Positions 6,005 to 53,532 of a stretch of DNA of 64,000 bases are shown here, one piece after another. Source of the DNA: an uncultured Candidatus Saccharibacteria bacterium (GTDB taxonomy: Bacteria; Patescibacteriota; Minisyncoccia; Phycocordibacterales; CAIZLB01); the NCBI GenBank assembly GCA_964467385.1, contig CAYXQC010000003.1, positions 37,798 to 101,797 of the forward strand, written 5' to 3'. The notes beneath the pieces are model-generated. The model saw only the letters and a program-made list of their open reading frames with translations, did not search any database and was not told the origin of the DNA. The position numbers and the translations under genes were made by a program. Numbering within the stretch: the stretch's first letter is position 1; the number at the start of each line of letters is the position of its first letter.

Positions 6005-6023
6005 TTATTGATACTCGCTCTGT

Positions 6024-6866: not shown

Positions 6867-6869
6867 AAA

Positions 6870-7400: not shown

Positions 7401-7538
7401 GGCATAAGTATATGCTTGTTGGTTTCTAAATGCAACCAGTTATCTAATACACACGATGTATCAGATAGTATTAGTTTGTATCAGATTAATACGGCTATAA
7501 GGTATGTAGCCGATTACGGCGGATTACAGCCGAAAGGC

Positions 7539-8888: not shown

Positions 8889-8959
8889 CTCGCCCCAAGA
8901 GTCCAGAGCGTCCCGAGTACCTCGAAGTTGGTAACTTTTGCCTGTGGAAAACCCAATAG

Positions 8960-9531: not shown

Positions 9532-9634
9532 CCCCTAACTGATGACGCTGTTCGCAAAGCCTGTCTAGACCCCTCAAAAGTCTCGAGGTTGGTAACCGAC
9601 TACACAAATTCCGATATGTAAGTTATGGTACTAA

Positions 9635-10633: not shown

Positions 10634-10642
10634 ATCAAATTT

Positions 10643-12181: not shown

Positions 12182-12183
12182 AT

Positions 12184-13026
12184 ATGAAAGAGTCTTTTCC
12201 AAACAATTCCGACGCTATAATCACCAGACATTCTATTCGAGGGGAAAACTCTGAATATGAAGGGCTGTCACCAGAAGGTATTGAGAAAGCAAAAGAAAGG
12301 GCAAAGGATTTCGTGGAAATTATTGAAAAATCTGAACCAGGTACGGTTATATTTTTTGGCGGTGGTTCAACAGAAGCTCGAACAACCTCCACTTTGGAAG
12401 TTTATGTGGATGAAACAAAAAGCTTGTTAAAAGAGAAAGAGGGTGTCTTGTTTTTCGATCAGGAATCAATATCAGAAAAAGCACAGCGTGGTCACCTGTC
12501 CGCAGCAGAAGAGCTTAAAAAAGAAGCAGATGATAATCCTGAGGCAAAAGTAGTTGTAGATCTACCGCTTGTTATTAAGGATTTTCTTAAAGACGAATGG
12601 TGGTATGAGGAAGATGGAACGGTTAAAGAGCCGTGGCAATCTTTATTAGATAAACATGGGAAAGATTACTCATCCATAGTTCGAGACTGGTTTGAGACTC
12701 AGGGAATGTATGATGGTGAGCAAAAGGTTCCTAAACCTATTGAAGTTGCTGAAAGCTATCTAAATGGAATTAAACGATTACAAGGTTTTGTTAGAAAGTT
12801 TTCAGGAGATAGGAACGTTAAAGTTGTAGTTGTCGGGCATAGCATTCAGATGGATGCTTTACTTACTTATTTGGCAAATGATGGGGTTGTAGATTTAGAA
12901 GGATTTGAAAATATCGGAGACAAAGTTGTAGATACAACTGAAATGTCTGTTATTGAACCTGATGAAGATGGAGGCATTCATCTTTCTTATAGGGGTAAAG
13001 AGTTTATTTTTGGAGAAAATCAATAA
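12184..13026 (+). CDS. Histidine phosphatase superfamily (phosphoglycerate-mutase-like) protein
   Basis: N-terminal ITRHSIRGEN (RHG-type catalytic motif) and VVVGHS later; start 2 nt after the preceding stop. Confidence 0.55.
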   Translation: MKESFPNNSDAIITRHSIRGENSEYEGLSPEGIEKAKERAKDFVEIIEKSEPGTVIFFGGGSTEARTTSTLEVYVDETKSLLKEKEGVLFFDQESISEKAQRGHLSAAEELKKEADDNPEAKVVVDLPLVIKDFLKDEWWYEEDGTVKEPWQSLLDKHGKDYSSIVRDWFETQGMYDGEQKVPKPIEVAESYLNGIKRLQGFVRKFSGDRNVKVVVVGHSIQMDALLTYLANDGVVDLEGFENIGDKVVDTTEMSVIEPDEDGGIHLSYRGKEFIFGENQ

Positions 13027-13031
13027 ATAAT

Positions 13032-15128: not shown

Positions 15129-15558
15129 GGTCGATTGTAGTTAATCCGAGAGCCTCACGCACCATCTTTTCTTCTTGAGGAGTGAGAGCTTCTTCCTCTG
15201 CGGTCTTGGTGGTAAGTTCGACCTTGTTTCTATACTTAGGATGATGCTGTCTGAGCCACAATTGGATTGCAGGAAAATTCTTTTCCTTGATGAGTGTAAT
15301 GAGCTGACTTTCGGAAAGATCATTGATCATTTCCTCGCCGTCCTGCATGGCCTCGTCAGTCGCTTTCTTGAATTTCGCATCATCACGTCTCCATCGGTAG
15401 TAGGTGCTACGACCAATATTGCTTCTCTCACATGCAATCTGCACGATCGGTATCTTTCGGAGCTGTTCCAAGACGACTTTCTGTTCAACTTTGTTTCTTT
15501 TTAGGGTTGATTCTCTTTTCATAATTTCATTGCTTTTAAGTTTGTTAATTTTTCCCAT
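15121..15558 (-). CDS. Small HTH DNA-binding protein. Probable terminase small subunit.
   Basis: 145 aa; helix-turn-helix IACERSNIGRSTYYRWRR; 8-nt overlap with the terminase large subunit start. Confidence 0.4.
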   Translation of the reverse strand: MGKINKLKSNEIMKRESTLKRNKVEQKVVLEQLRKIPIVQIACERSNIGRSTYYRWRRDDAKFKKATDEAMQDGEEMINDLSESQLITLIKEKNFPAIQLWLRQHHPKYRNKVELTTKTAEEEALTPQEEKMVREALGLTTIDHA

Positions 15559-16349
15559 CTAATAATTGCGGTCTGTACGTACTCGGGATCAAGCTCTATG
15601 GCGATACATGCTCGCTTGGTCTGCTCGCACGCCAATAGACATGTTCCAGAGCCAAGAAAGGCATCGTAAACGACATTGCCAATGCGAGTGCTATTGAGGA
15701 TGAGATGTCGAATAAGTGGCACAGGCTTAGTCGTAGGGTGGAATGGACTCTTGTTCGGCTTCGGATGAACGATGACACTCTTGTCTTTTGATTTTAAGAA
15801 TTCATGCGTTCCATACCATCCGTATGCGATGAGTTCATGCATCGGTGCATAATCCATTCTTCCAACCACTGCTTGAGTTTTCACCCACACAATCAATTGA
15901 GCGAATTTACAGCCGATTGATTTCATTCCGTCACGCAAGGCGAATATCATCTTGTCGGAGTTGAAGATGTACAGAGCATTCTTCCGTTCAAGATGTGGAG
16001 TTACCGCACTAAGCCAGTCTTCAGTGAACTTCTTGTATTCCTCGTCAGACTGAAGGTGATCATTCTCAATCTTCTTGCCTTTGAGCAATGCTTTAAAGTT
16101 CTGCTTGCTCTCCGCAACCGCAACTCCGTAGGGCGGATCGGAAATGATTGCCTTAATTTTTCTTTTACTAACCACCCTTGAGACGAACTCCTTGTCTCTC
16201 GAATCACCGCAAGCAATCGTGTGTTCGCCAAGTTGAAAGATGTCTCCCGCCTTAATTGAGTTTTGTGACTTTTTCATTTGGAGAGAGTTGTCTAAAGCGG
16301 TTGATAATGAGTTGGCAGAATATCGGTTCCATTTCGCAGAGATACGCAA
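15519..16349 (-). CDS. DNA N6-adenine/N4-cytosine methyltransferase (N6_N4_Mtase family). Real start probably the internal Met near 16277.
   Basis: IISDPPYG catalytic motif and C-terminal FLGSGT SAM-binding motif. Confidence 0.75.
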   Translation of the reverse strand: MRISAKWNRYSANSLSTALDNSLQMKKSQNSIKAGDIFQLGEHTIACGDSRDKEFVSRVVSKRKIKAIISDPPYGVAVAESKQNFKALLKGKKIENDHLQSDEEYKKFTEDWLSAVTPHLERKNALYIFNSDKMIFALRDGMKSIGCKFAQLIVWVKTQAVVGRMDYAPMHELIAYGWYGTHEFLKSKDKSVIVHPKPNKSPFHPTTKPVPLIRHLILNSTRIGNVVYDAFLGSGTCLLACEQTKRACIAIELDPEYVQTAIIRWEKLTNLKAMKL

Positions 16350-17538
16350 TGCGTTTCAACTGTTCGCACGCTGACAGGATGCTTCCTGATCCGCCAGTAA
16401 TATCGAGGACGATATCACCAGGGCGACTACACCTACGCAATGCTTTCTCATGCAAGGTAGGAGGCTTCTGTGTCGGATGTGCATATTCCTGTGACGGCAG
16501 TCGCTTCACGAGCCAGATATTGAGCATGTCTAGAATATCCTCGACTAATCTGTTGCCAGTCGTGGTTTCTTTGTTCAATACTTCATTGAGATTTTTAATC
16601 TTGTCAGACAAGTAAGGTTTTCCTCTCGTGCCGTATACGCAATATTCGGTGACCTTGTTGAATGCCACCTGCGGTGTCGGGGAAGCATTGTCTTTAACCC
16701 ACAAGCAGAGTCGCTTTGAATCGATACCAAGCTCCTTGTAGAGTTCTTGGAATAGCCAAACGTATCGCTCATCGCACCAGAAGAAAACGTGAGCGTCTGG
16801 CTTGGTCACGCTCAATGCGTTTTGGATAAGTGTCTTTGCGAATGTTTTATACTCGTCATCCGTTTTGCTGTCGTCAGTTGTTCCACCATATTTAGCTTTA
16901 TTGCCGACACCTTTGTCATACGAGAGACCGATGTTGTATGGAGGATCGGTATTGATCATGTCGGCAAGATTTTCATTCATGAGAAACTTGATCATGTTTT
17001 GATCTGTAGAATTGCCGCAGAGAAGTCTGTGGCGACCGAGAGCAAAGTAGTCGCCGAATTTTATATCGGTTTCCTTTATTTTCTCCAACTCTTTTTCCTC
17101 ATCGAAGTTGTCGTCACTCACTTCGAGATTGTCATCAAAGATATTAGTGAGATCGGTTGAATCAAAGCCTGCCATGAGCAGGGTGTCGATGTCGAAGTCG
17201 CTCGCCAGTATCTCCCAGTCCCAAGAGCCGCCTGAACGATTGCTTGTTAATAAATATTGTTTGAACTCAGAAGGGGTGAGCTTGCGATTCGGTGTTCTCA
17301 CCTCGATTTCTTCTTCACCTCGACCTAGCAGTTGCAGCGCTTTGATGCGCTGATGGCCTGCGACGATCTTTCCGTCAGTGTTGATCGCAGGAAGCTCTGC
17401 AAGATTGAACTTCTTCAAGCTTTCCTTTAAGTCTTCCATCTGCTTGTCCGTGATTTTCCTCGGATTCTTCTCGTAGGGCAGAAGATCGTTTACCCGGCGC
17501 TTTTCGGTACGCCATACCAGTGGTGTTAATTTGGACAT
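16252..17538 (-). CDS. ParB-like nuclease domain fused to DNA methyltransferase (phage-type ParB-MTase)
   Basis: N-terminal ParB/Srx-like region (KITDKQMEDLKESLKKFNLAELPAINTDGKIVAGHQRIKAL), INTDPPYN catalytic motif, C-terminal DITGGSGS SAM motif. Confidence 0.75.
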   Translation of the reverse strand: MSKLTPLVWRTEKRRVNDLLPYEKNPRKITDKQMEDLKESLKKFNLAELPAINTDGKIVAGHQRIKALQLLGRGEEEIEVRTPNRKLTPSEFKQYLLTSNRSGGSWDWEILASDFDIDTLLMAGFDSTDLTNIFDDNLEVSDDNFDEEKELEKIKETDIKFGDYFALGRHRLLCGNSTDQNMIKFLMNENLADMINTDPPYNIGLSYDKGVGNKAKYGGTTDDSKTDDEYKTFAKTLIQNALSVTKPDAHVFFWCDERYVWLFQELYKELGIDSKRLCLWVKDNASPTPQVAFNKVTEYCVYGTRGKPYLSDKIKNLNEVLNKETTTGNRLVEDILDMLNIWLVKRLPSQEYAHPTQKPPTLHEKALRRCSRPGDIVLDITGGSGSILSACEQLKRIAYLCEMEPIFCQLIINRFRQLSPNEKVTKLN

Positions 17539-17599
17539 ATATATTTACGGTTATTAATAATAGGCACAGTATGCGTTCCACAACTTGATCTAAATGTAG

Positions 17600-17775
17600 G
17601 AATTACTCTTGCTCCTCACTTAATCATGCGTGTGAAAAAGTGATTTTTGTGTTGCATTACTCTTCTGTCCTGAGACAATGGTAAATCCCAAAAAGTGACA
17701 AATCGTGGTGCATTACTTTTGCCATCCATAATGCTACTCGTGAAAAAATGCAAAAAGGTGTGCATTACTTTCTCT
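17600..17775. repeat. Periodic iteron-like repeats upstream of the ParB-MTase/terminase operon
   Basis: Four copies of ..TGCATTACTYTT / ATTACTCTT at 17603, 17656, 17712 and 17764 (spacing 52-56 bp). The three downstream copies at 17630-17664, 17690-17720 and 17739-17772 are preceded by AAAAAGTGA-type blocks. Confidence 0.45.
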
Positions 17776-18172
17776 ACCCAGAATCGTATGCTGGCCAACG
17801 TATCCGATTAGTGGGTATTGAAAATGCTACTGGATAAAAAACGTGTAAAATCGTGCGGAATCAATTTCACTTTCTTATCCTCTAAAAGCGTAGCGGACCC
17901 GAACCCTTCTGTCTGGGGGAATTACCTGGCAGAGAATGAATATGAAAATCAGTCCAGCAATCCTCTGAAAATATGCAAAATCAAAATGGCACACTGCTTT
18001 GGCACAGTGTGCTGTTCCAATACCTCTGAAATACCCTTATGTTGCTTGGCGAAAGATGTCGAAACCATCCTTACGGGGCTTGTTTGAAACACTGCCCCTG
18101 CGTGTGCCAAATTGTGCCAATTTGGGAAAGGGAGACCCCGACCCACGAACCCCAAATTGATCAGTCCAAATA

Positions 18173-18229
18173 TGCTAAAATACCCTTACAAGGTCTCACC
18201 CATGGGGTACTTAACCCACGATGCCCGCA
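18173..18229 (+). repeat. Copy A of a 57-nt duplicated block with an extended -10 promoter-like start
   Basis: TGCTAAAATACCCTTA ... GGTACTTAACCCACGATGCCCGCA; followed by hairpin ACCAGTTTTAACTGGT. Confidence 0.4.
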
Positions 18230-18384
18230 TTGACGATACGAACCAGTTTTAACTGGTGAGTGTCGGCAACTTTCTGATACAGTAGGAAGCGAAGCTTTTG
18301 GGGATTCGAAAAGGTTCTCCCATATTTTCGAGAATGAGCGTAGCGAGTTTGAGAAAATGGGAAACCTGTACTGAAGCTGTAAGC

Positions 18385-18432
18385 TTCGAATCCCTCCGTC
18401 TCCGCATTAAGAACTTGGTATCGGCATGACCC
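18385..18432 (+). repeat. attR-like direct repeat (displaced copy of the tRNA-Ser 3' end, no 5' half)
   Basis: TTCGAATCCCTCCGTCTCCGC identical to 5174-5194; no complementary T-stem or acceptor 5' strand upstream. Confidence 0.6.
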
Positions 18433-18438: not shown

Positions 18439-19080
18439 CTAAGAAACCTTCTTAAATACCAAATCACCCGAGATTCTATCTTCGGTGTTAGGTCGCTTCC
18501 AAAGAAATATATTTTGAGTAAATTCAGTAGGATTTTGAATTTCTGAGGCTGAGTGATTGTAAATATTGATTCCTCGCCCCTTCATCATCTCGATTATTCT
18601 TGGTTCAAATTGCTCTAGTGATACGAAAATACTTTGTCGTGCCACTCTCTCAAATTCCTTCGCTAATTTTTCCCAATCCTCAATAAAGTAAAGGGAACTG
18701 AGTGCGATGATGTGGTCTACAGATTTATCCCTGAAAGTTTCAATGACATCCTCGACAGCCCCGATATGTCCCTCAAAACCTCGCTTTTTTGCCTCCTCAA
18801 TCATTGCGGGCGAAATATCAATTCCTTCGTATGTAAATGAGTCACCTAAATATTTCTTGAGCTTTCCCGTACCACAACCAATATCGAGCAAAGTTCCCTC
18901 GGTTATTCCATATTTTTGATATGTTTCCAGTAGAATTCTTGGAATCTGATATTCAGCTTTTCCTTCAAAGGATTCGTCGTAGACTGATGCGGCCTCGTCA
19001 TAAAAAAGGGTCACATTCCTCCTCTGTGTTTCAAGTTCTGTTTTTTCTGGACTTGGCGGTATTTTTTCCATATCTATCAT
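18439..19080 (-). CDS. Class I SAM-dependent methyltransferase
   Basis: LDIGCGTGKL motif I and DISPAMIEEAKKRGF; 213 aa. Confidence 0.6.
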   Translation of the reverse strand: MIDMEKIPPSPEKTELETQRRNVTLFYDEAASVYDESFEGKAEYQIPRILLETYQKYGITEGTLLDIGCGTGKLKKYLGDSFTYEGIDISPAMIEEAKKRGFEGHIGAVEDVIETFRDKSVDHIIALSSLYFIEDWEKLAKEFERVARQSIFVSLEQFEPRIIEMMKGRGINIYNHSASEIQNPTEFTQNIFLWKRPNTEDRISGDLVFKKVS

Positions 19081-19142
19081 ATTATCGCTAATGGCAAGAT
19101 TAGACTAGTGACCCACATACCTAATTTCAGTCTCAAAAAACT

Positions 19143-19199
19143 TGCTAAAATATCCTTAGGGGGTTTCGCCACTCTGGTACCTAACCCACGATGCCCGCA
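19143..19199 (+). repeat. Copy B of the same 57-nt block
   Basis: TGCTAAAATATCCTTA ... GGTACCTAACCCACGATGCCCGCA; same spacing as A with a 17-nt variable middle; followed by perfect hairpin GGACAGAATTTATTCTGTCC (19212-19231). Confidence 0.4.
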
Positions 19200-19309
19200 A
19201 CGATTCGCGAGGACAGAATTTATTCTGTCCGATGCGGAGCGTATCTTGGACATGATAGGTTGATGAGAAAGACGGAGCGGATGAGGCGAGCATCCTGTGC
19301 AGCAAGCCT

Positions 19310-20119
19310 CTATTTCAAAGCCTTTTTGATATTCTCTAGCTGAATTTCTACATCCTTCTCTGTCATATTTATATTTTTATCAAGATTTTTCAATATAATA
19401 GCCTCCTCCTTTGTGAGATTTCTGACACCTTTTGTATTTTGCAAGAGCTCTACAGTCATTTGCACATTATCCCGTAAAGCCTTGAAGCTCTTATGCAGGT
19501 GAATTTCTGTCTTTGAAACATCGTTTCTTATTTTTCTTCTTAAGGTGAAAAGCTTGGAAGCAAGGAACCATCCGAAGGCAATCAGGCACGCCAAAGTCGA
19601 CAAAATTATTATTCCAATTCCTAAATAATTTATTACGAGGCCCCCTATTCTAAACAGAGCTTTTTGCTTAACAAGGATTGTCACTGGCACTGTCTGTTCG
19701 CTTTTCGCTCCCCTTCTATCTTCTACAAGAGCTGTCATTGAATAGGTTCCTGGATCAATTTTTTTCGTCCAGATTAGCGCAAAGTCCCCCGAATCATTTG
19801 TCTCTATTGACTGGTATTCTATTTTTCCATTTTTGTCTTTCAGATAGACGGTTACTGTCGTATTAGGGTAAGAAGTTCCTTTAACTTGAAAAACTTCTCC
19901 TACTTCAAGTTCTTTCGGGTAATCGATCAATTTTGGGCTTGCTATCGCAAGAATACTGAAGTCAGCGGACTGGACCGTAGAATTTCCAGCCTTATCAACT
20001 GCTTTAACCAAAATACTGTGTTTTCCTGGATTCAAGGCAGGAGTTACATAAATTGTAGATGAAGCCTCAGAGTTTATGATAATGCAGGAAATTACAGTGA
20101 AAAGACAAAGATCATACAC
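19310..20119 (-). CDS. Membrane-anchored protein with an Ig-like extracellular region and a C-terminal coiled-coil
   Basis: ORF track; beta-rich N-terminal region, TM helix GIGIIILSTLACLIAFGWFL, charged C-terminal tail. Confidence 0.35.
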   Translation of the reverse strand: MYDLCLFTVISCIIINSEASSTIYVTPALNPGKHSILVKAVDKAGNSTVQSADFSILAIASPKLIDYPKELEVGEVFQVKGTSYPNTTVTVYLKDKNGKIEYQSIETNDSGDFALIWTKKIDPGTYSMTALVEDRRGAKSEQTVPVTILVKQKALFRIGGLVINYLGIGIIILSTLACLIAFGWFLASKLFTLRRKIRNDVSKTEIHLHKSFKALRDNVQMTVELLQNTKGVRNLTKEEAIILKNLDKNINMTEKDVEIQLENIKKALK

Positions 20120-29856: not shown

Positions 29857-32143
29857 AGAGTTTTTTCGCCTGACGCCAAATCAGCAAAGCGCTCTCAGAA
29901 AAATTGGTATCGAGAGTATTCGCGATGTCTTGTATCATTTACCAAAAAGATACGAATATGCCTCGTCTGCGAAACTGATCCAAGACCTTGTCCCAGATGA
30001 ACATATCACCGTATATGGTCGCATAAGCGGACTTAAAACTGGAAAATCTTTTCGCACAAAAGTCTCAAAAGCGGAAGGAAAATTAAATGATGAAACAGGT
30101 ACTTTAAAATTACTCTGGTTTCATCAGCCGTATATTGCAAAGATTATTCAAGACGAAAGTCTCGTACGTGTTCATGGAAAAGTGAGTGAACGAAATGGGG
30201 AGCTATCGATGTTGAATCCCGAGATCGAGTCCATCTCGGCTATCCCAGATAATATCGGGCAAAATTTATTTGCTGATGCGATTGCAAATGGAGTTAAAAT
30301 CGAAAGTATCAATGGCGTCAATAATAGCACATCACTGACAACTCCGATTCCAATTTATCCAGAAAGCAAAGGGATCACATCGCGATGGTTCTATCATGCC
30401 GTGCAGAAAGTTTTCAAACATCCTGAATTCGCCCGTATTGAAGATCCTATACCTGAAGAAATTCGCAAAAAATACAATCTTCCCTCTTTGCAAACAGCAC
30501 TTGTATGGATTCATACGCCGAAAAAATCAGAAGATGCAAAAGTGGCCGAGAAACGCTTTGCTTTTGAAGAAATATTTTACATACAACTGCGCAATGAATT
30601 TACCCGTGCACTCCATGCTCGTGAAAAAAGTTTTGCTATTGAAAAACCAGCTAATGAAATAGATGCATTTACTGAGCGATTCCCTTTTGCTCTCACTGAA
30701 GGACAGCAAGTAGCTATCTCACATGTTTTAGCTGATTTTAAAACTGGTCACCCAATGTCGCGACTCCTCGAAGGTGATGTAGGATCTGGAAAAACTGCCG
30801 TTGCAGCCGTAACAACTTATGCATGTGTAGCTTCACGTCCACGTGGACAAAACTTTGGCACGCTTCAAGTTGCATATATGGCACCGACCGAGATTTTAGC
30901 GCGACAACATTTCGAATCATTTATTCAATACTTCAAGCACATGCCAATTTCGATCGGACTCATAACTGGGAATGGCTGTAGAAAATTTCCATCAAAAGTA
31001 AATCCTAGCGGTTGGACCGATATTTCTCGTGCGCAATTTTTGAAATGGGTAGCAAATGGCGAAATTTCAGTAGTAATTGGAACGCATGCACTTATTCAAA
31101 AAACTGTTCGTTTTAAACATCTCGCATATGTAATCATCGACGAGCAACACCGCTTCGGTACCGAGCAAAGACAAAAACTTGCTCGTAAAGAAAAAGTGAT
31201 GCCTCACCTTCTTTCAATGACAGCTACTCCGATTCCGCGAACACTCGCACTTACTATGTATGGCGATCTCGATCTGTCTGTGCTCGATCAAATGCCAAGC
31301 GGTCGTAAAAAAGTTATTACTGAAATTGTAAACAGCGGAGGTAGTGTGGGACAAAGATCAAATCGACATAAAGTATACGAACATATTCGCAGCGAACTTA
31401 AGGCAGGTCGGCAAGCATATGTAATTTGTCCACGTATCAACGAACCTGATCCAGAAAAAGAACAGACTGTCATGGCACGTTCCGTGAAAGAAGAAGCTAA
31501 GCGACTTCGTGAAGATACTTTCAAAGAATTTCGCATTGATATTATGCATAGCAAAATGAAACCGACAGAAAAAGAAGCCGTGATGGAAAAGTTTGCACGA
31601 CATGAAATTGATATTTTAGTTTCAACTTCTGTAGTTGAGGTGGGAGTGAATGTACCAAACGCTTCTGTAATTGTGATTGAAGGTGGTGAACGTTTCGGTC
31701 TTTCTCAGCTTCATCAGCTTCGTGGACGAGTGATTCGAGGAAATCATCAGCCGTATTGTTATGTATTTACAAGCGACAGCAAACGCGTTTCAAATGGGCC
31801 AAGTAAAGGTGCGACTGCAAAAAATCAAAGTTCAAGTAGTGCAGGCGCTGGGAAGAGTGACAAGACAATTGAACGTCTTCACGCATTGGCTACCGCCAAA
31901 AATGGTTTTGAACTAGCCGAACTCGACTTGGCGCAGCGAGGTGCCGGAGAATTATATGGCGGAAAACAATGGGGGCTTTCAGATATTGCCATGAATGCTA
32001 TTAAAAATCTCAAGATGGTTGAAGCCGCTCGAACTGAATCTCAAGCATTAGTGCGTGAGCATGAGACTATGGAAAAGTTAGCTACAGCCGTTCCGGCACT
32101 TGGTGCCATTTTGCAAAGCAAAAAGGAGGTACATATGGAGTAA
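29816..32143 (+). CDS. recG: ATP-dependent DNA helicase RecG
   Basis: N-terminal wedge/OB domain, helicase motifs GDVGSGKT, DEQHRFG, TATPIPRTL, QLHQLRGRVIRG; 775 aa. Confidence 0.85.
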   Translation: MQNMINIFLSQSSKEFFRLTPNQQSALRKIGIESIRDVLYHLPKRYEYASSAKLIQDLVPDEHITVYGRISGLKTGKSFRTKVSKAEGKLNDETGTLKLLWFHQPYIAKIIQDESLVRVHGKVSERNGELSMLNPEIESISAIPDNIGQNLFADAIANGVKIESINGVNNSTSLTTPIPIYPESKGITSRWFYHAVQKVFKHPEFARIEDPIPEEIRKKYNLPSLQTALVWIHTPKKSEDAKVAEKRFAFEEIFYIQLRNEFTRALHAREKSFAIEKPANEIDAFTERFPFALTEGQQVAISHVLADFKTGHPMSRLLEGDVGSGKTAVAAVTTYACVASRPRGQNFGTLQVAYMAPTEILARQHFESFIQYFKHMPISIGLITGNGCRKFPSKVNPSGWTDISRAQFLKWVANGEISVVIGTHALIQKTVRFKHLAYVIIDEQHRFGTEQRQKLARKEKVMPHLLSMTATPIPRTLALTMYGDLDLSVLDQMPSGRKKVITEIVNSGGSVGQRSNRHKVYEHIRSELKAGRQAYVICPRINEPDPEKEQTVMARSVKEEAKRLREDTFKEFRIDIMHSKMKPTEKEAVMEKFARHEIDILVSTSVVEVGVNVPNASVIVIEGGERFGLSQLHQLRGRVIRGNHQPYCYVFTSDSKRVSNGPSKGATAKNQSSSSAGAGKSDKTIERLHALATAKNGFELAELDLAQRGAGELYGGKQWGLSDIAMNAIKNLKMVEAARTESQALVREHETMEKLATAVPALGAILQSKKEVHME

Positions 32144-32284
32144 ATGGTGGTCACGGATATTTTCTTGCTACCCGCTCTAAAATTCCTCGACCCTAGCTCG
32201 TCTATTTTTCCTACTGGAAAAATATGACTCCGCCTCGCCAAAAGTAAACAAAAACCCAGACTGCTCTGGGTTTTTGAATCTTTG

Positions 32285-32358
32285 TGCGCGTGCATGGACT
32301 CGAACCATGGACCGCCGAGGTATAAGCTCGGTGCTCTAACCAACTGAGCTACACGCGC
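32285..32358 (-). tRNA. tRNA-Ile with anticodon UAU (TAT)
   Basis: Reverse complement GCGCGTG-T-AGCTCAGTTGGTTAGAGC-A-CCGAG-CTTATAC-CTCGG-CGGTC-CATGG-TTCGAGT-CCATG-CACGCGC-A folds as a canonical cloverleaf; positions 34-36 of the loop are TAT. Confidence 0.7.
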
Positions 32359-34654: not shown

Positions 34655-35122
34655 ATGAAGCATCAGACCACTTATATTCATAACAAAAAGGCACTCTTTA
34701 ACTACGAAATCCAAGACACTATCGAAGCCGGAATCGAGCTTTTTGGTCATGAGGTCAAGTCAATCAAAAACAACCAAGGGTCACTCGAAGGTGCGTACGT
34801 GATTGTACGTGGAGGCGAAGCATATCTTATCAATATGAACATTCCTGCGTATCAAACTGGAAATATTCCAGCAGATCATGAACTAACACGAAACCGGAAA
34901 TTAATTCTCCATAAAGAAGAAATAAAGAAATTGGCAGATGTCGGAGACAAAGGCGGCAAAGGAAATGGTGGTTTAACTATCATTCCCCTTTCTATATACA
35001 ACAATCGTGGACGCATCAAGGTTGAGATCGCAATCGCTCGCGGTAAGAAAAAAATTGATAAGCGTGAGACTATTAAAAAACGAGAAACTGATCGTGAGAT
35101 ACGGAGGGAAATGAAGAGGTAA
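34655..35122 (+). CDS. smpB: SsrA-binding protein SmpB
   Basis: KKALFNYEIQDTIEAGIELFGHEVKSIK..., RNRKLILHKEEIKKL, GRIKVEIAIARGKKKIDKRE are all typical SmpB blocks. Confidence 0.85.
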   Translation: MKHQTTYIHNKKALFNYEIQDTIEAGIELFGHEVKSIKNNQGSLEGAYVIVRGGEAYLINMNIPAYQTGNIPADHELTRNRKLILHKEEIKKLADVGDKGGKGNGGLTIIPLSIYNNRGRIKVEIAIARGKKKIDKRETIKKRETDREIRREMKR

Positions 35123-35585: not shown

Positions 35586-36026
35586 GGGGATGACAGGCAT
35601 CGACATGCAAGTTCCCTTGTTTGTGCGCAATCGAGTATTCTGAAACCTCGCTAAACTTTCAGGAAACCTAAGTGCTAACGCACGAAAAGCAGTCGCTTCT
35701 CCATTCTATGGAGTAAACGATTTTGCATTTGCTACAGCCCGAGCCTAACTTCGGTTACTCCGCTCTAGCAACATCTCGCTTCTCTTTTTTCGCTGGAGAA
35801 GTTGGGGTGATATACCCGCGAAATAGGCTGGTGAGTTTCTTCACTCAACTACCGAAACCTTAGAAGATCGGTTTGAAAATGTTTTGTGTATTTCCTAGTT
35901 TTCAAACTTAAAGTCGTGACGCGGACATCTTCGGGTGACGCCTCTCTCGGCGAGAAATACAACACGTTGCGTAGACTCACTCAAGAACCTTACATGCACG
36001 CGAGTTCGAATCTCGCCGTCTCCACA
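35586..36026 (+). ncRNA. ssrA: tmRNA (transfer-messenger RNA, standard one-piece)
   Basis: 5' GGGGATGACAGGCATCGACATG resembles the tmRNA 5' consensus. The 3' T-arm is GCGAG-TTCGAAT-CTCGC and the acceptor CGTCTCC pairs with GGGGATG, including a G3:U70 wobble. An internal reading frame ends ..NDFAFATARA-TAA at 35746-35748. The gene sits immediately after smpB. Confidence 0.7.
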
Positions 36027-36037
36027 GTAATACAAAA

Positions 36038-36060
36038 GGCCGACCTGCGTCGGTTTTTTG
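36038..36060 (+). terminator. Terminator hairpin after tmRNA
   Basis: GGCCGAC-CTGC-GTCGG then TTTTTT. Confidence 0.5.
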
Positions 36061-36182
36061 TATTACCTAGTTTGAGAGAGACAGAGAGACGAGAAAGGCG
36101 GAGCTAATGTCGATTCAGCAGACGAGACAGCGAGCCGGGGTCGCGGAAATTTCTGAGCGATGGCGAAGAAATTATCTGTGAC

Positions 36183-36202
36183 CGAATCTCGCCGTCTCCA
36201 CA
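36183..36202 (+). repeat. Direct repeat of the tmRNA 3' terminal 20 nt (CGAATCTCGCCGTCTCCACA); the other copy is 36007-36026
   Basis: Exact 20/20 match 176 bp downstream, without the 5' T-stem strand; followed by its own hairpin AAATAAAATAACCACCTTACGGTGGGTATTTTATTT (36203-36239). Confidence 0.6.
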
Positions 36203-36273
36203 CAAATAAAATAACCACCTTACGGTGGGTATTTTATTTGTACTGATTCTATGGCTTTCAAGAAAAGATAACC

Positions 36274-37014
36274 CTATCTCGCCAAAATATGATTCTGTAC
36301 ATGAAGCACAACCGTTTCTGAAAGTGTTGGAGTCGCTGTATCCGGCTCACCATTTTTCCGATCAAGGTACGAGACACTCAGGTTATAACCTGTAGCACTA
36401 ATCATATATGCCAACTGTTTTGGTTGGTAAGCTGCTTTTTCATTCGGAGTTGCTGTAACACTATTCAAGATCACCCGATCACCGATTGAAATTGCCCCGC
36501 TGTACATAACTGCTTGGCCCACATTTCTAAAAAGCGCCACATGCTTGATCTCAGCGAGCTGTCTGTCCTGAGTTACTGTCATTTCTACAAATACATCATA
36601 TCCACTATCGGTTGCAACTTTTCCGAGAATTTTTCCAATAGTCACTTTTCCTTTAATTGCACTGTCAGTGTAATTTGCTACACCACCAGAAAGTGTAACT
36701 TCAGCACCAGTCACAGGCACTTTGATTTTTGCAGTATTAATAAGAGCGAGTAGGCTTGCATCACTTGGAGCTACTGGAAGTGAAGTCTGTCGAGAGGTAC
36801 TTGTTGTTTTGGTTTTTGAAGAATTTGAACCAGTTGCACCTACTCCATTTACACTAGTCGATGAAGCACTCATGTCTCCATCTTCTATAGTCGACCCATT
36901 CTGCAAATCAGCTGCACTTTTTCCAAAAGGATTCATTCCAGCTACGCTGAAAATGATACCAACAACCACAACTGCTGTCACAATAATTAACACGGTCTTA
37001 AGATTTGAATTCAT
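36274..37014 (-). CDS. Hypothetical membrane-anchored protein (N-terminal TM helix, Ser/Thr-rich linker)
   Basis: ORF track; MNSNLKTVLIIVTAVVVVGIIFSVAG N-terminal anchor. Confidence 0.35.
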   Translation of the reverse strand: MNSNLKTVLIIVTAVVVVGIIFSVAGMNPFGKSAADLQNGSTIEDGDMSASSTSVNGVGATGSNSSKTKTTSTSRQTSLPVAPSDASLLALINTAKIKVPVTGAEVTLSGGVANYTDSAIKGKVTIGKILGKVATDSGYDVFVEMTVTQDRQLAEIKHVALFRNVGQAVMYSGAISIGDRVILNSVTATPNEKAAYQPKQLAYMISATGYNLSVSYLDRKNGEPDTATPTLSETVVLHVQNHILAR

Positions 37015-37240
37015 TGTATATACTTAATATTAAGGCTGATTTTAAGCCGAAGCCAAGGCTCTAATCAAACGAGCTAAAGGCTCTGCCAAAATGAGCTAAT
37101 ACTATAAGTCTACACCCTCCGTAGTAAATTGCATACCGTAAAAGTATAGCAAATTGACACCTTACCTCTAAACTTATACGCTTACATTCAGATCAAAAGC
37201 ACATCACAACGAGTAACCAAAATATAGAGAGGAAATCGAA

Positions 37241-38269
37241 ATGGAACCGCAAACTGAACCCATAAAAACAGAATTGACAAAAACGATCGAACAAATTAGG
37301 GGGATAGCTTTACCCGTCCTACCAATACCTATATCTGTTCGCCGAATCACTGAGGATGACAGACAAAACGGGTGGCACAGAAACAACCGTTCAGGTTGGG
37401 TCACGGAAAAACCATTGGTGCGCTTTGGAGATATTCCAACCATCAACATTCCCTGCCCGACAATAAGAAAACCGGTCGGACCAGATCAGGTGCAATACAG
37501 TAGCCACGAATGTATTGTCGCACTATCGAACCATCTAGGATTCGAAGCTTCTGAAAGCTTTACTGACGGAACCTTACCTCCCTCCACATACGACGCTTTC
37601 AATATGTCGCGATTTGGAATCTTCCGTTTTGAATCTGATCAAGTCACATCGAAAGATGTGCTGGCTTTTTTTACAGCAAATCACATCAAACGAGCCACAA
37701 CCCGCGATCTTCTTATGTTTGAAGAACATTACAAGATGGTTGTTGGTGATAAATTGATCGCACTCGGATGCTCAAATGCAAGTCAAATAGAGCTGGCAAC
37801 CAGCGGTATCTGCAGCTTGCACAACATAGCGAGAAAGATAATCGGTTCAAAAAAATACATCGATCCGCGAAAAATATCCTATCCAATGCTCGCAAAACCA
37901 AGAAGACACGAGCTTAGACTCGATCTGACACACGATCATCCAACTCCCTGGAATTGCGAACATCTCTTTCTTGGAAAGATCATGTGCATAGCGAAATACG
38001 ACGAGTGGATGAACCGTCTGGCTATATCCCTCAAAGAATATCGAGCGTTACCCACACGGGAGAAACTCCCGAAAAACCCATTCTGCAAAGAATGTTTAGG
38101 TAAACGCTATGTTACGGAACAAGGTTGGGTCTGCGAGATCATCAGAGGAGAGGAGGTAGACTATCAGCAAGCACTTCTGCAAGGATTCGACCCTGTTCAC
38201 ACCATTCCGGATTACGCCGGACGAATGTACAGACCAGTCTTCACTGAACTTGGTCTTGCACGTTCGTAG
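37241..38269 (+). CDS. Hypothetical Cys/His/Trp-rich protein, composition looks GC-richer than its neighbours
   Basis: ORF track; several CxxC/CxH-like pairs (CKECLGKRY...CEII; WNCEHLFLGKIMC); terminator hairpin 38303-38338 after it. Confidence 0.35.
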   Translation: MEPQTEPIKTELTKTIEQIRGIALPVLPIPISVRRITEDDRQNGWHRNNRSGWVTEKPLVRFGDIPTINIPCPTIRKPVGPDQVQYSSHECIVALSNHLGFEASESFTDGTLPPSTYDAFNMSRFGIFRFESDQVTSKDVLAFFTANHIKRATTRDLLMFEEHYKMVVGDKLIALGCSNASQIELATSGICSLHNIARKIIGSKKYIDPRKISYPMLAKPRRHELRLDLTHDHPTPWNCEHLFLGKIMCIAKYDEWMNRLAISLKEYRALPTREKLPKNPFCKECLGKRYVTEQGWVCEIIRGEEVDYQQALLQGFDPVHTIPDYAGRMYRPVFTELGLARS

Positions 38270-38302
38270 TTACACTGACAGTTGAACACGACATACAACT
38301 CA

Positions 38303-38338
38303 AAATCCCTGATAGCTTCACGGCCGTCAGGGATTTTT
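38303..38338 (+). terminator. Rho-independent terminator
   Basis: AAAATCCCTGA-TAGCTTCACGGCCG-TCAGGGATTTTT. Confidence 0.5.
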
Positions 38339-38383
38339 AATTTCTCCTACCTGCTATAGAAATAGACTATTGTTTCTTTTGAA

Positions 38384-45805: not shown

Positions 45806-46585
45806 TTAATTTTCTTCTGATATATGTTCTGCTTTAACAACCATGGTTAGACCGTCCCATGCTGGCAAAAGACTCACCTGCTTTTGGAATGTCTCAAAAA
45901 TCCACGTATTAAATTCTTTGATATGTTCAGCACTATTGTCACCGGATTCTTCATATCGGACAAGTCCTTTGTTTAGGGTGTTGTCAACCAAAAGCGTACC
46001 ACCCGGACGGAGAAGTTTCCATGCTTCGAGTGTATATTCTTTATAATTTTCCTTATCTGCGTCTATGAAGACTACATCAAAAAATTCTAAAGTTGGTTCA
46101 TCTTTGGTCAATTTTTCCAACACACCCTTCGCCATACCGAGCTCAAAATGAATCTTCTCTTCTACACCCATTGCTTGCCAAAATCGCCGAGCAAAAGGAA
46201 CAGGTCGTGCGTCTTCATCACAAGCAAATACTTTTCCATCTTTAGCTAAACCTCGAGCGATGAATGCAGTACTAAAACCACGGAATGTACCGATCTCGAG
46301 CGCATGTTTTGCACCAAGCGCCTTCATCAAGACCTCAAGAAACCTAGCCTCTGAAAGTGGTACATTGAGATACGAACGTTCATGCTTTTGATTGCTCCGG
46401 ATACTGAAATTGTCCTCAGGAGTTTCTGTGAGCCGAATCAGCTGTTCTATGTACTGGTTTACATGCATATTTACTTGCACATGACCACCACTTGATCGGC
46501 TTTTTTGATAGTGAATTGCCTTTCGTACTTTCACTGGATGCAATTGTTTAAAAAATTTTCTGATTTTTGAAACTAACTCTTTCAT
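45806..46585 (-). CDS. Class I SAM-dependent O-methyltransferase (family 3, caffeoyl-CoA-OMT-like)
   Basis: ALEIGTFRGFSTAFIARGL, FDVVFIDADKENYKEY, LRPGGTLLVDNTL. Confidence 0.6.
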   Translation of the reverse strand: MKELVSKIRKFFKQLHPVKVRKAIHYQKSRSSGGHVQVNMHVNQYIEQLIRLTETPEDNFSIRSNQKHERSYLNVPLSEARFLEVLMKALGAKHALEIGTFRGFSTAFIARGLAKDGKVFACDEDARPVPFARRFWQAMGVEEKIHFELGMAKGVLEKLTKDEPTLEFFDVVFIDADKENYKEYTLEAWKLLRPGGTLLVDNTLNKGLVRYEESGDNSAEHIKEFNTWIFETFQKQVSLLPAWDGLTMVVKAEHISEEN

Positions 46586-49657: not shown

Positions 49658-49819
49658 AGTCTATCGAATCAAGATGAAGACACTATCAAAAAATTCTAAG
49701 GAAATAGGCTTATAATTAGGCGTATTTTCGCTATAAAAAAATTAATGAAAATTTTATCCACAAGTTATCACATCACAAAAATTCCAGGGTGCAAAAAGAT
49801 AAGAATCAAAAAAATTAGA

Positions 49820-52780
49820 CTAAATACTGAATGAAGATGTACTTGCGGGCGATACAGAGCGCCCTACTGAAGCAGCGGAAATTGACGCCACTGGTTCCTT
49901 CTTATATTTTTCCATAATCAACCCTTCGACAAGTTCCCTTTCTTGACCGTACTTGAGATATGATAATTCTTTAAGACTTTCAACTATTTCTGGGTTACCC
50001 TTTTCCGGCCATGTAAATTCAATATTGAATGGTCGAACTGGTTTGCCACCAGAAAGAAGCTTCATGTAACAATTCATGTTGTCTATGTTCATAATGTCAT
50101 TTGCACTAAATACTGGTTCAAATTGTTTTTGCAAAAATTCTGCATCTTCTGCACCCACACGAAATACCCCCATATTTCCAACGTTTCCGAATACAGCATC
50201 CTTAATCTTGTCATCGAGTTGAGCAATAAACTGGTGAGCAACCGTAAGCGAAAGCTTGTATTTTCGTGCCTCTGAAAGGATGGTTGAAATAGACGGTGTT
50301 GTAATGTTTTGGAATTCATCAATATATAGATAGAACGGTGGCATATCTTTTCCAAATGAATCGACACGAGAAAGTGCCGCCATCAAAATCTTTCCAACCA
50401 AAATAAGTCCGATAAGTGAAGAGTTAATGTCACCGAGTCGCCCTTTTGCAAGATTTACAAGCAAAATCTTTTTGTTGTCCATAATCTCTCGGAAATTGAA
50501 GCTTGATTTTTCCTGTGCAATAATCGGCCGCATAATATCGTTTGCCAAAAACACATCGAACTTGCTTGTGATATATGGCACCATGTTCTGAAGCGACCCT
50601 TCACCTCCTGCTTTCTCGGCAATATCTTTCCAGAATTGCACGACGATTGGATTTTTACATCGACTGATCTTCATATCACGGAAACTTTTAACCGCCATCA
50701 CTCGTGACACATCGAGAAGCGTCGAGCCACTGTCAGGATCTTCAATCACAAGCATCGTAGCATTTCGGAAATACTGTTCGAACATTGGACCCATAGATTC
50801 AGGTACACCACCATAAAGCTTTTGGAAAATACTGAAAAGCTCATTCACTACGAACGTCTTTTGTTCAGGATTTGAGCGATTGTATTCGAGCATATTAAGC
50901 GCCATCGGTCGATCAGTATGACTCGGGTCAAAGTAGATCACGTCCTCATAACGCTCTTTTGGAATATGGGCCAAAATATCCTGTACATCAGAGCCGTGCG
51001 GATCTATGAAACAAACACCTTCGCCATTCTTGATATCCTGAAGAATCATATTTCGAAGCATGGTTGATTTACCTGTTCCGGTCTGACCGATTGCATAGAA
51101 ATGTCGAAGTCGATCTTCTGGAGTTAAGAATACCGGTGTAGCAGTGTTCCGATGCTTGTTTGTACCGAGAAAGAGGTTTCGTTTTGATGAGCCGTCTGGT
51201 AACTTTGTGAAATCACCTGGCATACCAAGTGGTGCAGGTGCACTACCTGCTTTTGTCTGCTTGAGCTGATGCGCACCAACCACCGCTTCAGTTGGAAAGT
51301 GCATGATTGTAGTAAGTTCTCGAATAGAAGCAGGCATGACAATATTCTTATCAAACAATCGATATGTGTAGGCATGTGCAAAACTTGTTATCTCACCCTC
51401 TTTTTTGCGAGAAAATACTATAGTATTCCCGAGCGAATTTTCAAATTGACCAAAAGATGACTCGATACTAGTTAGAATTTCTTCAGCTCTCTGGCGATTT
51501 TCAGCGGAAGCGAGCACACGAATATTACTCTCAATGACAGGCGTCTGAAGCTTAGCTGTGATCTGCTCAACCGCAATAGCGTCAACAACCTTAGGTTCAT
51601 CTTTTTCTTCTTTATCCTTTTTTGTTAGCTCTTTGTAAGTGTCTTTTGTAACCTGCTTAAAAGTTTTTGTGAGATTACCCCAAACAGTGTGACGGATGTC
51701 CGTTGCTTTCTTCACACTCTCCCCTTTTTGAATACTGTCGAGAGCTTCTTTGTACTGCTTATTGAAATATTCACCAGCAGGATTAAATACGAGTTGAATT
51801 GCAGCTCCTTCACCATATTTAGAAATTTTTGAAAGAGCATTCAAGATGACATTGAGCGGATCATGATCGAATTGTTCGTATGTTTTAATCGGAAAGATTT
51901 CTCGTCGTCCTTGCTTTGCCGATGAACCAACTGTCACACCGGCTTCATTGAAAATATTGTAATTATCTTTTTTCTCTTCGAGTTTAGCATCTGGGAAAAT
52001 AGAAAGGAATTGTTTTTCAAAAATCTCCCGCTTTGTATCAGGAACTGTTACGTAAAACACAAACTCATCCGCACCATTGGAAACTGCAAGCTCAATGGTA
52101 AATTGATTTTCAACTTTTTCGCTTCCGTACTCTGATTTTCCTGACGGCAAAGAATTTGCGAGCATGCCAGCATAAAATTGTTCCATTGAAGAAATAAGTT
52201 CTTTGAGGGTTTTTCGTCTATCTTCATCTGTATTCGACTCAGGCAAAGCAACTTCGTAAAGTGTCTGCTTGAGTGACTTGGCGATCGGAAGTGTTTCCTT
52301 TAGACCCTGCGCCGGATAACCCTTCTTAAGGTATTCAACCAAAAAACGATGGAAATCAGTGTCGATATGAGGATTATTCATACCATAAGCAACCTGAATA
52401 GCATTCAGGATCCCCTTTTCGTGCATAATTTTCATCAATTCTTCCATACGACTATCGTGAAGTTCTGGTGAGAGATCGAGAATAATTTCCCATTGCTCTT
52501 GAGCTGGCATCTTAAAATGCTCATGCAAAACCTTGTCAGCATCTTGCTGGCTATAGTGTGCAATTTCTTCGCTAATGATCTGCTCTTGCTGATGCGCCCG
52601 CTCAGCCGACTCAGGACTTGAGGTTAGATGCTGTTCCCGACTCTGCACAACACTACGCAAATAACTCAACTCCTCTTCAAGAGAAGCAAATTTTTTATTT
52701 TCATAAATTGCACTTGAATTTGCACCGTGATTTTTAAGATCACTTTTAGCATCTTTAAAATTGCCTTGCTCGTAAGACAT
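49820..52780 (-). CDS. VirD4/TraG/TraD-like P-loop ATPase (type IV secretion DNA-binding-domain family), 986 aa
   Basis: Walker A GQTGTGKST, Walker B LYIDEFQN, downstream LTVAHQ; large non-conserved N-terminal region. Confidence 0.5.
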   Translation of the reverse strand: MSYEQGNFKDAKSDLKNHGANSSAIYENKKFASLEEELSYLRSVVQSREQHLTSSPESAERAHQQEQIISEEIAHYSQQDADKVLHEHFKMPAQEQWEIILDLSPELHDSRMEELMKIMHEKGILNAIQVAYGMNNPHIDTDFHRFLVEYLKKGYPAQGLKETLPIAKSLKQTLYEVALPESNTDEDRRKTLKELISSMEQFYAGMLANSLPSGKSEYGSEKVENQFTIELAVSNGADEFVFYVTVPDTKREIFEKQFLSIFPDAKLEEKKDNYNIFNEAGVTVGSSAKQGRREIFPIKTYEQFDHDPLNVILNALSKISKYGEGAAIQLVFNPAGEYFNKQYKEALDSIQKGESVKKATDIRHTVWGNLTKTFKQVTKDTYKELTKKDKEEKDEPKVVDAIAVEQITAKLQTPVIESNIRVLASAENRQRAEEILTSIESSFGQFENSLGNTIVFSRKKEGEITSFAHAYTYRLFDKNIVMPASIRELTTIMHFPTEAVVGAHQLKQTKAGSAPAPLGMPGDFTKLPDGSSKRNLFLGTNKHRNTATPVFLTPEDRLRHFYAIGQTGTGKSTMLRNMILQDIKNGEGVCFIDPHGSDVQDILAHIPKERYEDVIYFDPSHTDRPMALNMLEYNRSNPEQKTFVVNELFSIFQKLYGGVPESMGPMFEQYFRNATMLVIEDPDSGSTLLDVSRVMAVKSFRDMKISRCKNPIVVQFWKDIAEKAGGEGSLQNMVPYITSKFDVFLANDIMRPIIAQEKSSFNFREIMDNKKILLVNLAKGRLGDINSSLIGLILVGKILMAALSRVDSFGKDMPPFYLYIDEFQNITTPSISTILSEARKYKLSLTVAHQFIAQLDDKIKDAVFGNVGNMGVFRVGAEDAEFLQKQFEPVFSANDIMNIDNMNCYMKLLSGGKPVRPFNIEFTWPEKGNPEIVESLKELSYLKYGQERELVEGLIMEKYKKEPVASISAASVGRSVSPASTSSFSI

Positions 52781-52846: not shown

Positions 52847-53416
52847 TTAATTTGATTTTTTGCCCGCACGACCCACGTCCTTGTTTCGACGCAAGAACTT
52901 TGAATTTTTCGGTAAGAATTCTCCAAGCCACTCAAGCTTTTCTTCGTGTGAATTAATTTTTGTATCAATTTCCGCATATTTTCGCTCGCACTTTTCCCAA
53001 ATAAGATCAACTTTTTCTCCTACGGCCGAGATACGCCACTGATACTCTTCAGTCAATGCTCCAATATGACGGGCAGTGTCTTCGTTGAACTGCAAACGCT
53101 GCTTTGTGAGAGCCTTTTCGAGAGCTTCGTCCAAGGTTTCCTTCATTTGTTTCTTCATATCTTCCTGAAACCACAAACGCTGCAGCTGCAACTGTTTTTT
53201 CATTTCATTTGTATAGATAATTCCCTGATTTTCTATATCAAGCCTAAGAAGCGCAACAAACTCGGCCAGTTTATCTTCAAAAGACTTAGAGTGCTCTCGA
53301 AATCGTGTATCGAGCATAGTCTCTAGCTCTTCGTGTGTTACATATTCTGTTGTATGTGCCGTGCTCATATGTATGATTGACAACATAATAGCACCAGCAC
53401 ATGAAGCCACTATCAA
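52847..53416 (-). CDS. Hypothetical coiled-coil protein
   Basis: ORF track; heptad-rich, charged. Confidence 0.3.
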   Translation of the reverse strand: MIVASCAGAIMLSIIHMSTAHTTEYVTHEELETMLDTRFREHSKSFEDKLAEFVALLRLDIENQGIIYTNEMKKQLQLQRLWFQEDMKKQMKETLDEALEKALTKQRLQFNEDTARHIGALTEEYQWRISAVGEKVDLIWEKCERKYAEIDTKINSHEEKLEWLGEFLPKNSKFLRRNKDVGRAGKKSN

Positions 53417-53532
53417 AAAATTCTAAAGAAACTTGTGTATAAATATAAACTGAACCTAGAAATAAAGCTCAAATACGAAACGAAAATACTAGTTGTCTAG
53501 TTCTCCGTAATCCTCCAACACCTTGTCGCCAA

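Follow-up and report, generated by a model that had tools for sequence, protein, structure and literature searches.

A probable gene-less mini-insertion around a conserved folded module behind the tmRNA gene of a patescibacterial genome

Much gene flow proceeds through integration into transfer RNA (tRNA) and transfer-messenger RNA (tmRNA) genes, a process little documented for the Candidate Phyla Radiation (CPR), whose tiny genomes were thought to be poor in mobile DNA. Sublocation classes of such integration were reportedly set out by Williams in 2002. The closest described systems are the islands in the tmRNA gene (ssrA) of Dehalococcoides: the integrase, DsiB, belongs to the CcrB-like large serine recombinases and is encoded by a gene that overlaps ssrA, and the islands lie in tandem arrays in which some units have no integration module (PMC3146451). 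Here we analyse a 64,000-nt stretch of DNA from an uncultured Candidatus Saccharibacteria bacterium (contig CAYXQC010000003.1, positions 37,798 to 101,797; the window), in which a 20-bp segment of the ssrA 3′ end is repeated exactly at the end of a conserved, folded module. The simplest reading of the sequence is a 176-bp insertion, made up of a terminator-like hairpin (T1), the module and one copy of the 20-mer, between ssrA and its native terminator. That this unit is a gene-less miniature integrative element, inserted into or behind the segment of ssrA that runs from the T-loop to the 3′ end, we consider somewhat better than an even bet.

The tmRNA gene occupies positions 35586-36027 of the + strand, downstream of smpB (34655-35122), and matches the covariance model of Rfam family RF00023 over its full length (model positions 1-374) with 74.5 bits against a gathering score of 47. 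It is 442 nt long, does not encode the CCA end and, as read from the RF00023 alignment, has a tRNA-like domain with a G3-U70 acceptor pair. The unusual length, with large insertions relative to the Rfam model, is common to the relatives; a run of ARAGORN on the window did not detect the gene. The 20-mer CGAATCTCGCCGTCTCCACA is present in two exact + strand copies, at 36007-36026 and 36183-36202 (176 bp from start to start), and no match of this kind arose in 100 dinucleotide-preserving shuffles. Identity extends over exactly 20 nt and ends sharply, with TT and AC as the 5′ flanks and G and C as the 3′ flanks. Copy 1 comprises the 3′ half of the T-loop, the 3′ strands of the T-stem and of the acceptor stem, the discriminator and CA; the repeat starts at C56 of the T-loop (TTCGAAT) and ends at discriminator+2. 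The Dehalococcoides repeat is likewise 20 bp long and likewise begins halfway through the T-loop, at C56 (PMC3146451). An intact target gene accompanied by a displaced 3′ fragment, and a shared block reaching from the T-loop to the gene end, are also features of Islander-type islands (PMC4383910), which tyrosine integrases insert; there, element sequence restores the target gene that it splits, and the far end is marked by the displaced 3′ fragment.

Both copies are followed by terminator-like hairpins with T-runs, all on the + strand: T1 is an extended hairpin (palindrome 36027-36066, core 36040-36053, then T6), and T2, behind copy 2, is bidirectional (36203-36240, core 36215-36228). In these respects, namely the exact duplicate, the identity of copy 1 as the genuine tmRNA 3′ end and the hairpin behind each copy, an earlier note on this DNA was right. 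The third copy that it suggested looking for does not exist within the 64-kb window. Between the copies there are 156 bp, in which no open reading frame (ORF) of at least 60 amino acids occurs except for spurious overlaps, so that no integrase gene lies there. Chance, or a tandem duplication by replication slippage, might have produced a duplicate devoid of biological role, which would agree with the closeness of the copies; however, the shuffles gave no match, similarity does not continue beyond the sharp edges of the 20-mer, and the architecture recurs in other genomes (L004, L037 and L011), by which this explanation is effectively refuted.

The 156-bp spacer consists of T1 and a conserved module of ~125 nt. 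Together with copy 2, which forms its tail, the module (scaffold A) covers 36065-36206 on the + strand and is divided into a 5′ arm (36078-36089), a hairpin P2 (36097-36136) and a hairpin P3 (36139-36183). Searches with nhmmer retrieve scaffold A at E=1e-36 to 8e-42, and the covariance model R1 scores the module with 146.5 bits on the + strand versus 18 bits on the antisense strand; the strand that folds is that of ssrA. Single-sequence folding gave z-scores of -4.4 for the window module and -4.7 for a second sequence. From five copies, RNAalifold predicted a branched P2 with a CAGUAG apex and a long P3, and from the three full-length copies an additional closing helix, P1, between the 5′ arm and the tail. 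Over the 41 pairs of this structure, 90.5% of the cells are paired, compared with 30-48% when the partners are slid by 1-3 columns, and compensatory changes affect 13 of the 41 pairs versus 0-4 in the slid controls. Two G-U pairs are invariant. P3 contains a GA/GA internal loop resembling a kink-turn (K-turn), and its apex, ...UUUC(U)GA-GC / GC-GAA-GA-AAUU, is conserved in all module copies; we take this apex, as predicted from sequence, to fit the kink-turn consensus and to resemble Kt-7 GGCGAAGAA. At the junction of module and tail, all five copies have GTGACC without variation, and the four that are full-length there share GAAATTATCTGTGAC unchanged. The latter, lying beside the repeat, may double as a recombinase half-site. 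Dehalococcoides islands also have a conserved motif directly upstream of each repeat, but there it measures 15 bp and here ~125 nt with a fold, and the window sequence is unrelated to the Dehalococcoides motif.

Rfam 15 families searched over 36027-36245 yielded nothing at the gathering score and noise matches only at E up to 10; across the window and the genomic loci L004, L086, L088 and L092, only tRNA and tmRNA genes reached the gathering score. Neither Rfam nor the literature that we searched contains a counterpart of a folded module with host-matched tails, and it is in this conserved module with its host-matched tails that the novelty of the locus lies. We think that it is probably transcribed as RNA, because of the invariant G-U pairs, the strand asymmetry and the K-turn-like loop.

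Copy 2 had been described in the earlier note as having no partner strand. This is not quite so: of the 12 positions of the upstream segment GAGACAGAGAGA (36078-36089), 10 are able to pair with copy 2, and another segment, GAGACAGCGAG at 36124-36134, can do so over 5+5 bp. P1 is nevertheless the weakest helix of the module, with 77% of cells paired. The window arm prefers its own tail and the L004 arm pairs with all tails, the ungapped test being non-significant for both; a 5′ arm that co-varies specifically with the tail of each host was considered and holds only weakly in these pairing tests.

Close relatives were reached through SmpB homologues and contig look-ups, the closest species representatives having SmpB identities of at most 60%. 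The arrangement of T1, module and tail also follows ssrA in two other Paceibacterota lineages, a Candidatus Taylorbacteria genome (L004, SmpB 59% identical) and L088 (SmpB 72% identical), and a profile search for the module located two sites in the window (36066-36205 and, on the - strand, 32130-32238), three in L088 and the L004 copy. The tail in L004, CGATTCCCAGCATCTCCACA, reproduces the last 20 nt of the L004 tmRNA without a mismatch and differs from the window's at 5 positions; in L088, 15 of 20 tail positions match its own tmRNA end. The second site in the window is a diverged copy that contains P2 and P3 only (32126-32255, - strand) and is placed just downstream of the terminator of a tRNA-Ile(tat) gene (32285-32358, -). 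It scores 77.8 bits with R1 (E=5e-21), and nhmmer gives E=4e-22. In L088 and L092 the spacer between the RecG and tRNA-Ile genes is short (~57 and ~81 nt, respectively) and no copy of scaffold A was found in it. The tail of the tRNA-Ile copy was also examined as a decayed tRNA-Ile end, a proposal that we rejected, since 1397 of 2000 shuffles were equally good. This recurrence suggests that the element belongs to a family residing behind tRNA and tmRNA genes in Paceibacterota. It also bears on the idea, raised in the earlier note, of a degraded island remnant, to which a conserved, covariation-supported module that recurs with host-matched tails, and twice in the window, does not correspond.

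Downstream of ssrA in L088 (8051-11924), two tandem units of 1847 bp, 97% identical to each other, are followed by a third, diverged module. Each unit runs TCCACAG, terminator, scaffold A, a TrmB-like gene (-) and a gene for 184 amino acids (+); the right ends of the units look like a decayed tmRNA 3′ end, and the contig stops inside the array. Two further contigs, L089 and L090, break directly after T1. The array in L088 is comparable with the tandem arrays behind Dehalococcoides ssrA, where units without an integration module are regarded as ‘cis-mobilizable’. Cis-mobilizable elements (CIMEs) share with our element the att-like repeats, the lack of recombination genes, the dependence on functions in trans and tandem accumulation (L088). 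They differ in being kilobases long and deletion derivatives of a specific parent, whereas the window element has a structured core conserved across distant hosts and host-matched repeats, and no parent element was identified.

Several observations point to an insertion and not an ancestral arrangement. Between genomes with tmRNAs that share only 59-60% identity, the module reaches 79-87%. It is missing from L086, L092 and L098, the tmRNAs of which are 83-92% identical to those of module-bearing genomes; L098, L103 and L101 have no module of any kind, and L086 and L092 have a different element, here called type B. Furthermore, T1 of the window aligns with T1 of L004, and T2 aligns with, and resembles, the native ssrA terminators of L086 and L092. 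The mismatch between module and tmRNA identities, this homology pattern of T1 and T2 and the short tRNA-Ile spacer in relatives together argue for insertion. According to the earlier note, the same duplicate with a conserved spacer in related genomes would point to an ancestral tandem terminator; the spacer is indeed conserved in part of the relatives, but its patchy distribution, with no copy at the ssrA loci of L086, L092 and L098, speaks against a simple ancestral arrangement.

The same data bear on a different explanation, in which a small RNA gene, resident beside ssrA and linked to it, makes up the module and is transcribed by read-through or from a promoter of its own. Its 3′ end would imitate the acceptor and T-stem of tmRNA for RNase Z or P, the CCA-adding enzyme or SmpB, and the duplicate would reflect functional mimicry, not a scar. 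The position behind ssrA in three lineages with tails that match the own tmRNA, the covariation-supported structure with its invariant G-U pairs and K-turn-like loop, the terminator directly after the tail and the upstream arm, which can close a 12-bp helix with the tail in the manner of the acceptor/T coaxial stack, would all suit such an RNA. Yet the module is absent from the closer relatives L086, L092 and L098, it is multi-copy and at tRNA-Ile has no tRNA-like tail, it is more conserved than the tmRNA, and T1 and T2 show the homology expected of an insertion. No sigma-70-like promoter was found between T1 and the module; moreover, mimicry does not need base-for-base identity of the tail, and the pairing of arm and tail is not clearly host-specific. 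We therefore consider a resident RNA gene unlikely, albeit the most serious of the competing explanations.

For the insertion, we favour integration of the large-serine-recombinase type combined with mobilisation of a gene-less mini element in trans. The element would contribute the ~125-nt folded module, a terminator of its own (T1) and one of the two tmRNA 3′ ends, and the other 20-mer copy together with T2 would represent the displaced native 3′ end and the native terminator. Copy 2 is most likely this displaced end, comparable to an attR site, and T1 was probably brought in by the element. The tmRNA gene would thereby be preserved intact and terminated at T1. Having no recombinase of its own, the element would be moved by an enzyme acting in trans, the likeliest being a large serine recombinase of the kind that serves the Dehalococcoides ssrA islands. 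The functional tmRNA 3′ end may be element-borne, as in the classical model, or alternatively both copies may derive from the target by a staggered-cut duplication. In comparison with the Dehalococcoides islands, the unit is tiny (176 bp), gene-less, hosted by Patescibacteria and without an adjacent recombinase; in comparison with Islander-type islands, it has neither integrase nor cargo and is far smaller than any catalogued island.

A number of points weigh against a mobile mini element. No recombinase is encoded inside or next to the 176-bp unit, and we saw neither an excised circle nor an empty site in the same species; the insert is present in each of the three assemblies of this strain. 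Neither the 20-mer nor the module turned up in viral, phage and plasmid collections: an exact-pattern scan of viral contigs for the 20-mer and a blastn search of phage and plasmid collections with the element were both without a match. A circle of 176 bp would be very small for recombinase synapsis. Large serine recombinases themselves need no long blocks of identity, so that the element would have to carry a host-matched 3′ end for each lineage, unless its duplicate is made by another route, for example staggered-cut target duplication. The covariation statistics are thin, drawn as they are from only five distinct module sequences of three lineages, and the P1 pairing of arm and tail is weak and not clearly specific for the host. 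Finally, the conservation of the module at the same locus could be that of a vertically inherited RNA gene.

Two matches from these searches call for comment. An 18-mer of the module had a single viral match, L100, which we discarded as a chance match inside an ORF. In metagenome contigs, the sole match of the 20-mer was L085 (Ga0233413_10021986), in which an unrelated tmRNA with the same 3′ end is found in a phage-like context. This contig encodes its own tmRNA at 580-1148, the last 28 nt of which are identical to the window's, with a tRNA gene directly after it; the contig is small, of higher GC content and packed with short ORFs, and its tmRNA may be phage-borne.

The dsiB arrangement of Dehalococcoides exists in relatives and is absent at the window's ssrA. 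In L007, a gene for a large serine recombinase (6745-8667, -) stands right after ssrA and its 3′ end overlaps the last ~110 nt of ssrA; in L030, such a gene (6815-7918, -) lies directly downstream of ssrA, again with its 3′ end overlapping the tmRNA gene. Among the window ORFs scanned (about 40 of 65), the sole recombinase is a large serine recombinase encoded at 7539-8888 on the - strand, 27 kb from ssrA (Pfam Resolvase, Recombinase and Zn_ribbon_recom; PHROG 95 integrase), and no tyrosine integrase or recombinase was detected in this set. The product of 7539-8888 is a candidate for the enzyme acting in trans.

This recombinase gene is part of a phage-derived island of 13.2 kb in tRNA-Ser(gct) (window 5105-18432; tRNA-Ser gene 5105-5195). 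The island ends are formed by the 3′ part of tRNA-Ser plus 27 nt of flank (5174-5221), repeated at 18385-18432 with 88% identity over 48 nt, the tRNA part being exact. Besides the recombinase, the island encodes large and small terminase subunits (13032-15558), two N6/N4 DNA methylases (15519-17538), a Hypoth_Ymh protein and a PPDK-like pair. To our knowledge, prophage-like elements have rarely been documented in CPR genomes. At its far end lies a type-B-like module (18262-18406, +), the last 21 nt of which repeat the tRNA-Ser 3′ end exactly. A methyltransferase gene (18439-19080, -) is flanked by a 62-nt repeat at 18168-18229 and 19138-19199 (79% identical), within which promoter-like hexamers can be discerned by eye (TTACAA-16-TACTTA and TTAGGG-16-TACCTA). 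Each of these repeats precedes scaffold-like sequence, namely the type-B-like module and a truncated 5′ half of scaffold A at ~19239-19334.

A once-large island in ssrA that lost its interior and kept its two ends, with the two downstream ORFs, ORF246 and ORF342, as its cargo, would leave a comparable footprint. Direct repeats of tRNA or tmRNA 3′ ends are the standard mark of islands, as documented in PMC3146451 and PMC4383910, and the window itself contains, at tRNA-Ser, a full-size island with the same kind of end. The minimal unit of T1, module and tail, however, is found again in L004 and, as the opening unit, in L088, and independent deletions would not reproduce it; structural constraint acts on its interior, the window has no third repeat, and the two ORFs are situated outside the repeat pair, have syntenic or chromosomal homologues and differ negligibly in GC content (0.41-0.46 versus 0.39-0.45 in the surroundings). 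We judge a deleted island to be improbable.

ORF246 (36274-37014, -) encodes a membrane-anchored protein and adjoins the element, to which it cannot be shown to belong. Its homologues form 16 clusters with 40-59% identity, and the one examined (L106) has a chromosomal context away from ssrA. ORF342 (37241-38269, +) lies in a conserved syntenic block. A word-indexed search with ORF342 returned only itself, and an exhaustive HMMER search five remote homologues, with which it shares 27-34% identity in the C-terminal ~215 residues. One of these, P0139 in L110, is located directly upstream of a gene block that is also found in the window and comprises DUF5652, a protein of 339/343 amino acids (59%), His_Phos_1 (74%), Zip (78%) and PLD (72% identical); because of this synteny, ORF342 is a fast-evolving chromosomal gene. 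Its cysteines are not conserved, and its structure model, with a mean predicted local distance difference test (pLDDT) score of 45.5, is unusable. Neither ORF matched Pfam or PHROG, and neither is homologous to the cargo genes of L088. The impression that ORF342 is richer in GC comes down to a marginal difference (0.43-0.46 versus 0.39-0.45 nearby), and the status of the two ORFs as leftover island cargo is not supported. Of the integration scar in ssrA that the earlier note had proposed, the integration footprint thus stands, its option of a tiny element being the closest, and degradation and cargo do not.

To place the locus in a wider context, 34 distinct ssrA loci were surveyed for an exact copy of the own tmRNA tail of at least 14 nt within 330 nt downstream. 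Five contain one (the window, L004, L037, L011 and L041), each with no equivalent in 200 shuffles. L037 (6996-7145) shares the layout, but its scaffold is unrelated, and a helix of ~19 bp closes its tail of 22 nt; L011 (6845-7060) has a 61-nt repeat that includes the terminator; and in L041 (3884-3965) the tmRNA 3′ end is copied in part. L009 (6840-7110) contains CCACTCGTAAAAACA plus terminator three times, and its antisense arm is split by a hairpin. The spacers at these four CPR loci are unrelated. An antisense copy of the tmRNA 3′ end follows just after the terminator in L010, L008, L009, L086 and L092. We considered these arms as primer-binding sites of a retroelement and rejected this, as they complement the genomic trailer and not the mature CCA end. 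The type B element, 260-320 nt in length, follows the ssrA terminator in L086 (4548-4868) and L092 (8400-8658), where it contains TGGGAGTTGAA, the complement of the own T-arm. It also has a hairpin with a CUGUAAG loop, the stem of which co-varies with that of the window's tRNA-Ser-linked copy.

These layouts raise the question of whether the module is an active targeting structure that directs a recombinase to the T-loop ends of tRNA-like genes, either as folded single-stranded DNA whose closing helix imitates the double-stranded ssrA target or as a guide RNA that pairs through arm and tail. Its strand-specific fold, closed by arm/tail pairing, would be in keeping with this, as would the unrelated scaffolds of L037, L009, L010, L086 and L092, which carry the own tmRNA 3′ end in inverted orientation after the terminator, and the cassette-like array in L088, where every cargo unit has a module at its boundary. 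No effector gene was found to accompany the module, however; arm and tail complement each other only modestly in the window (10 of 12 positions), non-significantly by the ungapped test and without clear host specificity; and P2 and P3 are strongly conserved in sequence, which attC sites are not. With all of this read from sequence, we regard an active targeting role as improbable, too. The corresponding broader idea is that scaffold A and the unrelated scaffolds of the same layout, that is, terminator, antisense arm, folded core and sense copy of the target's 3′ end, constitute a new class of mini integrative elements in Patescibacteria that are guided by structure or by RNA. A folded nucleic acid would then specify or present the target from T-loop to 3′ end, by analogy with attC or bridge RNAs, and this would explain how one scaffold family has tails matching different hosts; we rate it as a rather speculative possibility.

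The likeness to attC sites and to the folded attP of CTX phage lies in an imperfect closing helix around a variable or branched centre, a strand-specific fold and the cassette-like L088 array. In contrast to these, the module has a conserved interior, no attC consensus and no link to IntI or XerCD, and the comparison is an analogy only. An integron attC site was rejected as such: R′′ (RYYYAAC) and R′ (GTTRRRY) are absent by inspection, and the scanned ORFs include no tyrosine recombinase. A group I intron in the tmRNA T-loop was likewise dismissed, as no Intron_gpI match appeared at E up to 10; the unit of 176 nt is also shorter than group I introns. Introns in tmRNA genes are reported mostly from Bacillota (10.1101/2025.07.03.662931). 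Nor is there an array or effector at the locus that would indicate TIGR-Tas or other RNA-guided CPR systems.

Elsewhere in the window, a 986-aa protein (49820-52780, -) displays TraG/TrwB-type coupling-protein and HerA-like motifs and, judged by these, may be a component of DNA transfer or uptake. A sequence of 28-45 nt (ATGAAGACnnnATCAAAAAATTCTAAAG...) occurs three times, at 46065-46092, 49674-49718 and 53401-53445, with a spacing of ~3.6-3.7 kb and close to gene boundaries on the minus strand.

Insertion of a gene-less miniature integrative element, the origin that we favour for the 176-bp unit, would make ssrA a hot spot of integration in the CPR too. An integration footprint can then be a gene-less unit of less than 200 bp around a folded module that is listed in no RNA database. 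Such mini-inserts would explain why assemblies break after ssrA, as in L089 and L090, and island finders that depend on an integrase gene would overlook or mis-score them. Should the module be an RNA, a new class of structured RNA associated with mobile elements would be at hand; should it play a part in targeting, integration sites would be specified in a new way.

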